The translations under genes and the position numbers were made by a program. Below are positions 12,727 to 24,073 of a stretch of 64,000 nucleotides of DNA, one piece after another; position 1 is the first letter of the stretch, and every line of letters begins with the position of its first letter. The notes under the pieces were generated by a model. The model was not told the DNA's origin and made no database searches. It worked only from the letters and a program-made list of their open reading frames with translations. Source of the DNA: Candidatus Malihini olakiniferum (GTDB taxonomy: Bacteria; Pseudomonadota; Gammaproteobacteria; Enterobacterales; Enterobacteriaceae). The stretch lies in NCBI GenBank assembly GCA_042263625.1, contig JBHKFL010000006.1, positions 3,766 to 67,765 on the forward strand, read 5' to 3'.

Positions 12727-12753
12727 GAACTTTGTGCTTTCTTCTGTATCTGA
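12727..12753 (+). promoter_or_regulatory. sigmaE promoter of degP
   Basis: GAACTT-16 bp-TCTGA consensus, 48 nt upstream of the ATG. Confidence 0.8.
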
Positions 12754-12801: not shown

Positions 12802-14235
12802 ATGAAAAGAAAATCATTGGTTCTGAGTGCATTGGCGCTGAGTCTGGTAATGAGCATGTGGCAAGTCGCCGCGGCGACAGAGGCGACAAGATTAACATCC
12901 AGCCAGATGCCAAGTCTGGCTCCGATGCTCGAGAAAGTGATGCCTTCCGCCGTTAGCATCTCTATTGAAGGGCATACCGACATCAAGCGCAGCAATATTC
13001 CGCAGCAGATTCAACCTTTCTTTGGCGAAAATTCACCGTTCTGTCAGGAAGGTTCTCCCTTCCAACACTCCCCGATTTGTCAGGGAGGTGAAGATGAAGG
13101 AGAAGAGAGCGTGCCTGCGAATCGTGAGCATTTTCAGGCACTTGGTTCTGGCGTGGTGATTAACGCAGAGAAAGGCTATGTGGTAACTAATAACCACGTG
13201 GTAGAAAACGCGGATAAGATTCAGGTACGGCTCTACGACGGACGCAGATACGACGCTAAAGTGATTGGCAAAGACACGCGTACCGATATTGCATTAATCC
13301 AACTAATTGATTTTAAAAGACTAACAGCCATTAAGATCGCTGATTCCGATCAGTTATGCGTGGGTGATTATACAGTCGCGATTGGTAATCCGTATGGCTT
13401 AGGCCAGACGGCTACGTCCGGCATTGTTTCCGCGCTGGGGCGCAGCGGACTCAATATCGAAAATTATGAAAACTTTATCCAGACCGATGCAGCAATCAAC
13501 CGAGGCAACTCAGGTGGCGCATTAGTTAACCTCAATGGTGAACTTATCGGTCTGAACACTGCTATCCTTGCACCGGACGGCGGGAATATCGGTATTGGCT
13601 TTGCGATTCCTAGCAATATGGTGAAAAATCTGACAGCGCAACTGCTTGAATATGGCGATGTGAAACGCGGTGAGCTAGGTATTACCGGCACTGAGCTAAA
13701 CTCCGATTTGGCACAGGCGCTGAAAGTAGATGCGCAGCGCGGCGCGTTTGTCAGCCAGGTCAGGGCGAAATCAGCAGCAGATGACGCTGGCATCAAGGCT
13801 GGTGACGTAATTTTGACGCTGAATAATAAACCGATCAGCAGCTTTTCTGCACTACGTGCACAGGTTGGTTCTTTGCCAGTTGGAAGTAAGATCAAGCTAG
13901 GCTTGCTGCGTGAGGGTAAACCATTAACAGTAGAAGTGACCTTACAGCAGGCAAATCAGACGCAGATGGCCTCTGGCAATCTCTATCCTGGGATCAGCGG
14001 AGCATCACTCAGCAACACCGAAATCGAAGGACAGAAAGGTGTGAAGGTGGATGATGTAAAAGTTAGTTCGGCTGCAGCGAAAATTGGTTTGAAGAAGAAT
14101 GACGTGATACTTGCTGTTAATCAGCAACCGGTGCAGAATCTCGGCGAACTGCGTACAATCCTGGACAGCAAGCCTACTGTATTGGCACTGAATGTGCGAC
14201 GTGGAGATATAACACTTTATCTATTAGCACAATAA
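12802..14235 (+). CDS. degP: periplasmic serine endoprotease DegP
   Basis: Signal peptide, TNNHV and GNSGG catalytic motifs, two PDZ domains. Confidence 0.96.
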   Translation: MKRKSLVLSALALSLVMSMWQVAAATEATRLTSSQMPSLAPMLEKVMPSAVSISIEGHTDIKRSNIPQQIQPFFGENSPFCQEGSPFQHSPICQGGEDEGEESVPANREHFQALGSGVVINAEKGYVVTNNHVVENADKIQVRLYDGRRYDAKVIGKDTRTDIALIQLIDFKRLTAIKIADSDQLCVGDYTVAIGNPYGLGQTATSGIVSALGRSGLNIENYENFIQTDAAINRGNSGGALVNLNGELIGLNTAILAPDGGNIGIGFAIPSNMVKNLTAQLLEYGDVKRGELGITGTELNSDLAQALKVDAQRGAFVSQVRAKSAADDAGIKAGDVILTLNNKPISSFSALRAQVGSLPVGSKIKLGLLREGKPLTVEVTLQQANQTQMASGNLYPGISGASLSNTEIEGQKGVKVDDVKVSSAAAKIGLKKNDVILAVNQQPVQNLGELRTILDSKPTVLALNVRRGDITLYLLAQ

Positions 14236-14244
14236 ATAATAGAA

Positions 14245-20818: not shown

Positions 20819-20987
20819 GGTCTACTCTGTTTATAGCGCTGATTATAGACGCATTATGCGTACGCTTTATCCTCTGTTTACACCACATATATTTCATACT
20901 ACACACTTGTACGTTTCATTTTTTGTGCCTTCTCCTGTTCTAGAGATTCACTTATGCTCTGGTACTTTTTAGGAGGATTAGCCCATC

Positions 20988-21739
20988 ATGCATCAGCACG
21001 CAGCGCAAGTACAAACATTGCGGCGTAATGAGTTTTCACGTTTAAACAATTTTTTCTTTCTCACGATCTTTTCGTGATGAAAGTAGGCACGGATGCGATC
21101 CTCTTCGGTGCCTAGCTCCAGTGCCGAACTGGTCGTATTCTTAATATGAGCTATGGTTTAGGATTTATAGTCCTAATGTTAGCTTAGCGTAGCCTAGAAA
21201 CATTAATGATCAATGTTCTGGAGTTAGCTCTCTAAGTCAGTACGTAACTAAAAAACCAGCAATCACCCCCTCTTGAAATCATATATCACCTTGATAACAT
21301 TGTTATTTTTAGAAAGTAAACGGCTTTACTGTACGCCTTTATTTTCAGTAATCCTCAGTTTTTGTCAAGATGTGTTTATCGAACTCCGGAACTCAGAAAA
21401 GCCCGTTATTCTGAGTCGTTGCTCGAGTGTACCGCCATATTATATTTCTGGAGCCGGAGGGCTACTTTTGTGGTGCTGCCAATTCCGATTACAAGTAATT
21501 TTGTGTGCTGATTACAAGTAATTTTGTGTGCTATAGATAGCATGCCACCTACTGTTGGTTTCTATACGTCAACGTCTAATGGTACACAAGCGAACGGATA
21601 GAAAGCCCCATCGGGAACTCGAGACCTTTTCGAAGAAAAGGCGGTCTCTAATACGGAAACGCTTATCGTGCGTACAGATGATGGTGGCTATTCTTTTGAA
21701 TTTCGCGCACTGACAAAAGAGTTCTATTTATTGATGTAA
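20988..21739 (+). pseudogene. yfiC: tRNA1(Val) A37 N6-methyltransferase pseudogene
   Basis: LRRN-FKQFF-HD-MKVGTDAILFGA*, SVPPYY (was NPPY), FRALTKEFYL*. Confidence 0.9.
21487..21532. repeat. exact tandem duplication, 23 bp x2
   Basis: GATTACAAGTAATTTTGTGTGCT repeated head to tail inside yfiC. Confidence 0.95.
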
Positions 21740-22133
21740 GATATCCCCGTACAATTGGATGTTACAGGTGTGTTGGCGATGATCACGTATCCGAACGCTT
21801 GCCTGAGCCTGAGTAAGCGCATTAGGATAATGAACCTCATCCAGAAGGTTCTCTCTATGGCCAGCACAATCGCTATTCAAAACGTTAATACTTTGTCCTG
21901 GAACTTGAATTCTCTAAGATATAGTGTCGCTAAGCAAGTAGAGAGGGTACTAAAGACTCGCACGGTGCTATTAAGCGCTTTTTCACGTCTTATCCCCTGA
22001 CTTGTCCTGATGAAAGAAAAGAATAGAAATCTGCCCGGAATGTAAGAGTGTAAACTTCGACGCGCGAAGATACATGGGGTAGGCTGAGCAATATAAAAAA
22101 GAAAAAACTCTAAAGAAAGAAAAATGCCGTCTG

Positions 22134-22160
22134 GAACTTTTTTTGATGGATACTGTCTGC
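22134..22160 (+). promoter_or_regulatory. sigmaE autoregulatory promoter of rpoE (P2-like)
   Basis: GAACTT-16 bp-TCTGC; the -10 deviates from TCTAA/TCTGA. Confidence 0.6.
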
Positions 22161-22248
22161 TTAAAAGCTTGCTCAGATTATTCAATAACGACATGGCTGG
22201 CAGTACTATTTCACGTGTGGAGACCGGTTTGAGGAGATATTACCTCGG

Positions 22249-22824
22249 ATGAGCGAGCAGGTAGCGGATCGCGTTCTGGTTGAACGTGTCCAGAAAGGCG
22301 AACAGAAATCGTTTAATTTGCTGGTGGTTCGATACCAGCAAAAAGTGGCAAACCTGGTTTCACGGTATGTTCCTCCTGGAGATGTGCCCGACGTAGTGCA
22401 GGAGTCCTTTATTAAAGCCTATCGTGCATTGGCATCGTTTCGGGGTGATAGCGCATTTTACACCTGGCTGTATCGTATTTCCGTCAATACAGCTAAAAAT
22501 TATCTAGTTTCCCAAGGGCGGAGGCCACCATCTAGCGATGTTGATGCCAATGACGCTGAAAATTATGAAACTGCCAGTGCATTAAAAGAAATATCAAACC
22601 CTGAGAACTTAATGCTCTCAGAAGAGTTGAGAAGTATTGTTTTTCGAACGATTGAATCGTTGCCAGAAAATTTACGGATGGCGATTACGCTACGTGAACT
22701 TGATGGCTTGAGTTATGAAGAAATAGCCGCCATTATGGATTGTCCGGTCGGCACTGTGCGTTCCCGTATTTTTCGTGCGCGAGAGGCGATCGATACTAAA
22801 GTACAACCGTTAATTCAACGTTAG
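22249..22824 (+). CDS. rpoE: RNA polymerase sigma factor RpoE
   Basis: 191 aa, highly similar to enterobacterial sigmaE. Confidence 0.98.
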   Translation: MSEQVADRVLVERVQKGEQKSFNLLVVRYQQKVANLVSRYVPPGDVPDVVQESFIKAYRALASFRGDSAFYTWLYRISVNTAKNYLVSQGRRPPSSDVDANDAENYETASALKEISNPENLMLSEELRSIVFRTIESLPENLRMAITLRELDGLSYEEIAAIMDCPVGTVRSRIFRAREAIDTKVQPLIQR

Positions 22825-22868
22825 ACACGGTTTTTCGTTAACCATCATGGAGTTGATAAGGTAAAGTC

Positions 22869-23180
22869 AGGCAGAAAGAGAAGCTTTGCTACTGTAGTGG
22901 ACGGCAAAGCCGCAAATACTCAATTTCTTAACACATTAGAGCCTGAGCCTGGTGTTGAACCATATAACAGCTGCCAAAGCTGCCTTTAGTTCTGGTATTC
23001 TGCGTGGTGACGTAGCTTCAGATTGAAGTAAAAAGTAACTAACGGCATCAATGTCATGTTGCATGACTACGAATTACAGCGTCTTCTCCAATCTATTCTA
23101 AGACATTAGCTGGAAGTACCCGCAGAATGAAAAATAGCAGGCAGCGATTCAGGTACTGAACTCGGTACTCAATCATGGGT
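22869..23180 (+). pseudogene. rseA: anti-sigmaE factor RseA remnant
   Basis: ATG is now AGG, followed by QKEKL..VDG; INVMLHDYELQR and GTQS present; the TM region is deleted. Confidence 0.88.
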
Positions 23181-23625
23181 GATGAAGCTCTTTCGGTTTA
23201 ATTTTTAATTAATACTCATCAGTTTATCTTATTCAACTACCACACTGGTGGATCGTGTAGAGAGATAGGGATATCAGCTATTTTAATTCAGATCTTGAAT
23301 CTTTTTGCTCTCTTGCGATCAAGTTTTTTGATCTCTTTCTCCATCCGAATCTTCGTAAACGAAGATTCGCAATCACTTTCTGCATTCTATGCTTTCATTC
23401 CAGAGGAATGAACAGTGCGTATAGCCGATCCCCTACTGGGTATCACAAAAGCGGTTAAAACACTTAACCTGACCTGGATTCGTGAGTAGCTTTTTCATTG
23501 GACGAAGAGTCCATACAGTAATTCGCAATGGTTATGAACTTACGTGGTGGGTGAATTATCCAAAGAAACGCTAAACACATTGCTAATAATATTCTTTTTC
23601 AATCACACACACTAAGTGATGTGTA
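23181..23625 (+). pseudogene. rseB: RseB remnant
   Basis: C-terminal VVGELSKET-KHIANNILF; position between rseA and rseC. Confidence 0.72.
23346..23369. repeat. perfect inverted repeat, 11-bp arms, 2-nt loop
   Basis: CGAATCTTCGT-aa-ACGAAGATTCG inside rseB. Confidence 0.93.
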
Positions 23626-23635
23626 GGGTGCTTTT

Positions 23636-24073
23636 ATGATAAAAGAGTGGGCGACTGTGGTTGTCTGGCACGATGGCATAGCTGTCTTGCATTGTGAGCA
23701 AGGTTACGGGTGTATCGGTTGTCAATCGCGTAAAACTTGTGGCACGGGTCTTCTAAGTGAATTGGAAGGGTTTGCAGAACAAGTACTACAGGTTCCCTGC
23801 GAGCAGCCCTTGATTCCTGGTCAACGTGTTGAGTTGGGTGTTTCGGAAAGCAGCCTGCTTCGCTTCTCTGTATTGGTTTATTTAGTGCCATTACTGGGAT
23901 TATTTATGGGATCTGGGCTGTTGCAATCGTTGTTCAGAACCGATTTGGCTGCGGTGCTCGGTGCCGTGTTGGGCGCGGCGTTGGCGTTCATATTGGTGCG
24001 AGGTTTCTCGCTAAAGTTAGGCAAAAAATGCCATTATCGTCCAGTTATTTTACAGATATCCCCTCCGGGATAA
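23636..24073 (+). CDS. rseC: SoxR reducing system protein RseC
   Basis: MIKEWATVV, Cys-rich CIGCQSRKTCG, two TM segments. Confidence 0.92.
   Translation: MIKEWATVVVWHDGIAVLHCEQGYGCIGCQSRKTCGTGLLSELEGFAEQVLQVPCEQPLIPGQRVELGVSESSLLRFSVLVYLVPLLGLFMGSGLLQSLFRTDLAAVLGAVLGAALAFILVRGFSLKLGKKCHYRPVILQISPPG

Follow-up and report, generated by a model that had tools for sequence, protein, structure and literature searches.

We consider it quite probable that the signal layer of the sigmaE envelope stress response (RseA, RseB and DegS) has been lost in the genome of the host-restricted psyllid symbiont analyzed here, that sigmaE itself has been kept by selection, and that its activity has become independent of signals. 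The description of a signal-blind sigmaE is well supported, while its constitutive, signal-independent activity would be expected from E. coli genetics.

The window (the whole 64,000-nucleotide stretch of DNA that was analyzed) lies within contig C6 of a draft genome (G000; 1.07 Mb, eight contigs, 44-45% GC), which was placed in the Symbiopectobacterium/"Ca. Malihini" clade (GTDB genus Symbiopectobacterium) via the loci recovered with RseC. The assembly is 95% complete, and every genome-wide search reported below has this scope, in that ~4.5% of the genome may be unassembled. The Malihini genome of Pariaconus hina is 1.07 Mbp in size, and the symbiont of P. crassiorcalix lies across the deepest Malihini split (PMC12360927). 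Two Malihini lineages were compared, G000 and one further species representative: the second-closest genome, G012 ("Candidatus Malihini olakiniferum" PCRASS from the psyllid Pariaconus crassiorcalix). For rseA and rseB, the alignment reference was G009 (5.4 Mb), the nearest relative with a large genome. Site patterns in rpoE favored the topology ((G000,G012),G009) by 6:1:1, with 11 changes common to all three genomes, which makes G009 the slowly evolving sister of the two Malihini.

From left to right, the locus consists of srmB (minus strand), a decayed trmN, a sigmaE-type promoter, a leader ORF, rpoE, a gap of 811 bp, rseC, lepA and lepB. The rpoE gene (22249..22824, plus strand) is an intact open frame encoding 191 aa, 88% identical to E. 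coli RpoE. The stop-free product scored 319.5 bits against TIGR02939 (cut-off 236.15) over model positions 1-190 and is thus a full-length member of the family in which regions 2 and 4 are both intact; E. coli RpoE has exactly the same -35-binding region 4.2 helix (VGTVRSRIFRAREAID). It is preceded by an rseD-like leader ORF (22193..22252, plus strand) of 19 codons, if one counts from the first ATG downstream of the predicted start site, and its stop codon and the start codon of rpoE share bases (ATGA); an alternative, longer frame of 42 codons begins at 22124. Both the leader ORF (annotated in E. coli as "rpoE leader peptide RseD") and the ATGA overlap have been kept from E. coli to G000. On the upstream side, trmN is reduced to fragments between srmB and rpoE (window 20900-21750), among which the frame at 21555-21713 matches the C-terminal part of G009 TrmN. 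The nadB gene, located here in E. coli, is absent from this interval and also from that between trmN and rpoE in G009.

Downstream of rpoE, the 811 bp preceding rseC contain no ORF longer than 42 aa. In E. coli, this interval is occupied by rseA (651 bp) and rseB (957 bp), and the operon of G009 is intact (220, 325 and 152 aa for RseA, RseB and RseC respectively). Alignment with the G009 operon resolved the G000 interval into two pseudogene remnants. In the rseA remnant (22869..23182, plus strand), the start codon has changed from ATG to AGG (22869-22871), a 6-bp deletion takes out the upstream GTG, frameshifts and an early in-frame TAG are present, and the loss of 353 bp after 23017 has taken away roughly residues 50-170, the transmembrane segment among them. 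Of the protein sequence, no more than ~18 residues from the periplasmic C-terminal part can still be recognized (23041-23094), so that the open frame with RseA_N (PF03872), membrane segment and RseA_C that defines RseA is missing. The rseB remnant (23182..23612, plus strand) has lost 200, 204 and 149 bp in three deletions and also contains stops and frameshifts; instead of an open MucB/RseB frame of ~320 aa, its matches are five short pieces (12-47 residues) in three frames. In total, rseA and rseB have lost ~930 bp of a combined length of roughly 1,640 bp. Thus the alignment bore out the initial annotation, which had described an intact rpoE followed by an rseA devoid of its start codon and transmembrane region and by a fragmented rseB.

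The next gene, rseC (23636..24073, plus strand; 145 aa), is intact and 84% identical to that of G009. Wherever the downstream region was fully read in the genus (G009, G012 and G010), rseC is intact regardless of the state of rpoE, rseA and rseB, a persistence in line with its annotation, which makes it a SoxR-reducing system protein and not a regulator of sigmaE. A GAACTT-N17-TCCAA motif was found within the rseB remnant (window 23536-23563), 72 nt before rseC, in G000 only, the corresponding sequence being GAAGTA/GAAGTG in G009 and G012. The chance expectation for such motifs is ~0.02 per 800 bp, and this one may be either a newly arisen sigmaE-type promoter of rseC or a chance match.

RseA keeps sigmaE membrane-bound in E. 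coli until the buildup of unfolded porins causes DegS and then RseP to cut RseA, and the two proteases matter through freeing sigmaE from RseA (PMC12421810, PMC11481867). In G000, degS is dead and rseP is intact. The best true degS remnant reached 39.7 bits against TIGR02038 (cut-off 422.95) and contains a stop. At the syntenic position, the 1.16-kb yhcB-murA interval, only fragments of degQ and degS with stops were found; in G009, degQ and degS adjoin murA. A second TIGR02038 match in G000 (268 bits) was rejected as degS, being degP. The latter is the only HtrA-family protease left in G000; degQ is a decayed pseudogene beside the degS remnant (contig C7:573322-573626, outside the window). On the other hand, rseP is an open frame of 451 aa that scored 485.2 bits against TIGR00054 (cut-off 147.55) and belongs to that family. 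Moreover hfq, csrA, dksA and sspB are present; CsrA, the rpoE leader ORF and DksA all modulate sigmaE in E. coli.

Both rseA and rseB are broken in G012 too, and three lesions are common to G000 and G012: i) a 1-bp deletion in rseA (CCATTT to CC-TTT); ii) a GGA-to-TGA change in rseB (~23409-23411 in G000); iii) a TGG-to-TAG change in rseB (~23487-23489 in G000). The remaining Symbiopectobacterium genomes have the intact states at all three sites. Since the lesions are shared by the two Malihini genomes and absent elsewhere in the genus, they point to a single inactivation before the two Malihini lineages split, while the start-codon loss and the large deletions in rseA and rseB came later and in the G000 lineage only. 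The host radiation has been dated to 3-3.5 million years (PMC11970012), and the state with rpoE kept and rseA and rseB dead is older than this radiation.

Of the 13 Symbiopectobacterium genomes, 11 have an open rseA and nine an intact degS. Four states were distinguished: i) the full system, in nine large genomes; ii) degS and rseB broken with rseA and rpoE open, in G002 (2.0 Mb); iii) degS, rseA and rseB dead with rpoE kept, in the two Malihini; iv) rpoE frameshifted and its promoter gone, rseA scrambled, degS broken and rseC intact, in Symbiopectobacterium sp. C28 (G010). In G002, whose assembly is fragmented (180 contigs), degS carries a frameshift and four TGA codons, but the frames of rseA (220 aa) and rpoE (191 aa) are uninterrupted, so this genome possibly represents an earlier stage of the same decay. 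A classification of G010 as "degS broken, rseA intact" was rejected: its rpoE is split by frameshifts into pieces of 98 and 110 aa, the sigmaE promoter of rpoE is destroyed, and its rseA has a scrambled stretch and a short duplication; its rseC is an intact 152-aa frame.

In the family-wide survey, 137 of 401 genomes were without RseA_N, those listed being mostly small. Among the small genomes without RseA_N, 16 of the 19 sampled had no rpoE match at E <= 1e-20; in G046 and G086, two sampled genomes with weak rseA remnants, only rpoE pseudogenes were found. Outside the genus, rpoE is kept in G079 (no RseA_N match) and in G396 and G032 (weak rseA remnants only); degS is a pseudogene or absent in all three, and no ORF of at least 90 aa follows rpoE in G079 and G032. 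G063 (1.4 Mb) retains rpoE, rseA and degS, and G000 is the smallest rpoE-keeping genome in this sample. Two or three further reduced symbiont genomes, from two genera, thus show the state with rpoE kept and rseA and degS lost, and retention of sigmaE after loss of brake and sensor has therefore arisen at least three times. It is uncommon, since in most lineages sigmaE is lost in turn. The rpoE-only state may be transitional, with complete loss to follow, as the frameshifted rpoE of G010 and the 16 of 19 small genomes suggest.

A variant of our explanation makes the loss of rseA adaptive and not neutral: degS was lost first by drift, sigmaE was thereby locked under RseA to the detriment of the cell, and selection then favored the loss of rseA, which acted as a suppressor. 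We regard this order of events as possible yet doubtful. Deletion of rseA does rescue degS mutants in E. coli; G002, with degS and rseB broken and rseA and rpoE open, might be the earlier stage; and in each of the four or five lineages that retain rpoE without rseA, degS shares the fate of rseA, being dead or absent. The importance of degS and rseP for the release of sigmaE from RseA (PMC11481867, PMC12421810) also fits this order. However, an initial loss of rseA, leaving degS without a use, would predict the co-loss just as well; neither Malihini has a living copy of either gene from which to read the order of losses; and G002 is a single intermediate genome in 180 contigs.

Whichever came first, rpoE and its former neighbors have since evolved very differently. 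Between G000 and G012, rpoE has a synonymous divergence of 0.29 and a non-synonymous divergence of 0.033 (dN/dS 0.11). Its dN/dS of 0.09-0.11 in the comparisons of G000 with G012 and G009 is far below 1 but about five times the 0.02 found between free-living relatives: rpoE is under purifying selection, less tightly than in free-living relatives. The nucleotide difference between G000 and G012 is 25% in the rseA/rseB remnants versus 8% in rpoE, i.e., the remnants have diverged about three times faster since the Malihini split. As 25% is near the synonymous rate of 0.29, the remnants evolve at about the neutral rate.

Promoters that sigmaE could use were called as motif matches only, by a -35 element GGAACTT, a spacer of 16 +/- 1 and a -10 element TCnnA (TCAAA-like; Rhodius et al., PMC1312014). 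A scan for GAACTT-N15-17-TC returned 59 sites in both strands of G000 (2.1 Mb), and the sites of rpoE, degP, rpoH and uppS are among the few that fall outside coding sequence a short way upstream of long ORFs. With ~0.004 chance matches expected per 150-nt upstream region, these four sites are unlikely to be chance matches. The predicted promoters of degP, rpoH and uppS match in the -35, the spacer and the -10 (TCnnA). rpoE, degP and rpoH are classical sigmaE targets (PMC1312014), while uppS heads the cdsA-rseP-bamA cluster in G000. The degP promoter (12727..12753, plus strand) is made up of GAACTT (12727-12732), a 16-nt spacer and TCTGA (12749-12753), just as the consensus sigmaE promoter reported for degP in the initial annotation. 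Its -10 ends 49 nt before the ATG of the intact degP (12803..14236, plus strand; 477 aa), a member of the sigmaE regulon.

The autoregulatory promoter of rpoE (22133..22160, plus strand) has GGAACTT (22133-22139), a 16-nt spacer and TCTGC (22156-22160), so that the -35 and the spacer match the sigmaE criteria and the -10 has a C at its fifth base. This base is an A in 77 of 77 other Enterobacterales species and a C in G000 only. The -10 in those species reads TCTAA in 46 (including E. coli, Brenneria and Pectobacterium), TCCAA in 19, TCCGA in six (Symbiopectobacterium only), TCAAA in four, and TCTGA and TCGAA in one each, with positions 1, 2 and 5 (T, C and A) invariant. The TCTGC reading was thus right in the initial annotation, which had however compared it with TCTAA, while the ancestral -10 of the genus is TCCGA. 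Since the -10 of G012 is still TCCGA, the change to TCTGC in G000 is younger than the loss of rseA. Mutation bias in symbionts is usually AT-ward, and the A-to-C change runs counter to it. The earlier idea of a weakened autoregulatory -10 gains from the contrast between the C of G000 and the A of all 77 other species, and the change could conceivably lower autoregulation and so down-tune the positive feedback. Being off an invariant base, the -10 was counted against our explanation.

The sigmaE-dependent small RNAs MicA (RF00078) and RybB (RF00110) had no covariance-model match above the gathering score in G000, and both were found in G012 and G009. As neither is detectable, part of the sigmaE regulon is gone. 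SdsR/RyeB (RF00111) was likewise undetectable in G000 and present in G012 and G009. The ompA gene is a pseudogene (contig C7:31775-32119, outside the window) in which a remnant of the C-terminal domain with stops is left and the barrel is gone; one OmpC-like porin is intact (C7:204429-205550). Together, the undetectable MicA and RybB and the ompA pseudogene mean that the regulon has shrunk, which was also counted against our explanation.

Such observations would be expected if the sigmaE system were obsolete, with rpoE open by chance or time lag and contributing little. Besides the altered invariant base of the -10 and the loss of MicA and RybB, this reading could draw on the dN/dS of rpoE, ~5-fold that of free-living bacteria (0.1 vs. 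0.02), on the frameshifted rpoE of Symbiopectobacterium sp. C28, and on the absence of rpoE from most of the small Enterobacterales symbiont genomes sampled. We nevertheless consider it improbable: i) the frame is open in both Malihini across a synonymous divergence of 0.29, while its neighbors lost ~930 bp and gained many stops; ii) a dN/dS of 0.1 is far below 1, and the DNA-binding helix is unchanged; iii) sigmaE-type promoters persist before intact degP, rpoH and the bamA cluster.

Persistence of regulation through a second rseA copy or through a non-homologous factor that restrains sigmaE is very unlikely. Anti-sigmaE factors other than RseA do exist in other bacteria, e.g., in Neisseria (PMC2893595), and such a gene might reside in the 4.5% of G000 that may be unassembled. 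However, searches of the 95%-complete genome by tblastn and by the RseA_N HMM in six frames, at any threshold used, revealed no intact rseA and no second rseB; tblastn matched nothing beyond the remnant, no ZAS-type or zf-HC2 zinc-finger anti-sigma domain was matched, the interval between rpoE and rseC is free of ORFs longer than 42 aa, and gain of a gene is unlikely in a shrinking 1.07-Mb genome. That the rseA and rseB lesions are an assembly or sequencing artefact of a metagenome-assembled genome can practically be discounted even for a draft of eight contigs, given that hundreds of bp are deleted and many substituted, that three lesions are shared with the independently assembled G012 from a different host species, and that the deposited annotation of G012 is also without a gene between rpoE and rseC. 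With rseA, rseB and degS dead and no substitute found, control by RseA, RseB and DegS is therefore gone, leaving sigmaE independent of envelope signals.

A plausible mechanism starts with the inactivation of rseA and rseB in the common ancestor of both Malihini lineages, the two genes having drifted neutrally since. Without RseA at the membrane, sigmaE would be free as soon as it is made, and its activity would no longer report unfolded outer-membrane proteins. That activity would be set only by sigmaE output (promoter strength, leader-coupled translation and CsrA) and by competition for core polymerase (DksA/ppGpp), and sigmaE would still drive its remaining promoters, namely those of degP, rpoH, rpoE itself and the uppS-to-bamA cluster. 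E. coli rseA nulls are viable, with strongly raised sigmaE activity and a dispensable degS. By analogy, the genotype of G000 predicts a sigmaE that is active whenever it is made, and degS would have been dispensable once rseA was gone. This activity need not be high, given the altered rpoE promoter, the persisting translational and ppGpp/DksA inputs and the missing small-RNA arm, and sigmaE may be produced in small amounts. A likeness to the constitutive GroEL of symbionts, proposed in the initial annotation, is speculation.

Tentatively, genome reduction may take the sigmaE pathway apart in the same order each time, with degS and rseB lost first, then rseA, and sigmaE only much later. Between the last two steps there would be a long-lived stage with an unregulated, housekeeping-like sigmaE for outer-membrane biogenesis, re-tuned by the A-to-C change in the -10 and by loss of porin-repressing small RNAs. 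If true, this would amount to a re-run of E. coli suppressor genetics over millions of years. The sigmaE system is a textbook case of regulated intramembrane proteolysis, in which essentiality and the tolerable level of unrestrained activity are still debated, and a lineage that has long lived with sigmaE in the absence of RseA, RseB and DegS puts both questions to the test in nature. Moreover the recurrence of this state and the graded series in the genus (full system; degS and rseB lost; rseA lost; rpoE lost) make the order in which a stress-signaling module collapses testable.

Our literature search found no description of rseA loss with retained rpoE in a symbiont, and the published Malihini papers make no mention of rpoE, rseA, sigma or envelope. 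What we describe is a natural variant of the well-known sigmaE system that is new for a symbiont; it reveals no new mechanism, and its outcome is as E. coli genetics predicts. The likeness to E. coli extends to the operon order (leader, rpoE, rseA, rseB, rseC, lepA) with srmB as upstream neighbor, to the -35 and spacer of the autoregulatory promoter, to the 88% identity of RpoE and to the presence of RseP, DegP, SspB, CsrA and DksA in G000. In genotype, G000 corresponds to the viable laboratory delta-rseA or delta-rseA delta-degS mutant of E. coli, where sigmaE is not bound by RseA and the cell can do without degS. Unlike those mutants, the state of G000 arose in nature and predates the host radiation, and it occurs in a 1.07-Mb genome without MicA, RybB and OmpA and with a -10 of TCTGC instead of TCTAA.

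The pattern also resembles the regulatory decay of insect endosymbionts in general, where sensors and repressors are lost and effector genes are retained; in Malihini genomes, for example, fur, phoQ and like regulators have been lost in parallel (PMC12360927). However, most of the smaller symbionts sampled are without rpoE, and G000 has preserved an intermediate state that is seldom seen. The closest natural precedent is the loss of mucA in Pseudomonas aeruginosa (e.g., mucA22), where an anti-sigma factor of the RseA family is likewise lost naturally during long-term life in a host: in chronic infection, this loss frees AlgU and results in constitutive activity of a sigmaE homologue (PMC6737893). 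Yet the P. aeruginosa mutants emerge in individual patients in the course of years, retain their proteases and are selected for alginate production, whereas in G000 the loss is fixed in the lineage, rseB and degS have decayed as well, and there is no known selected output.
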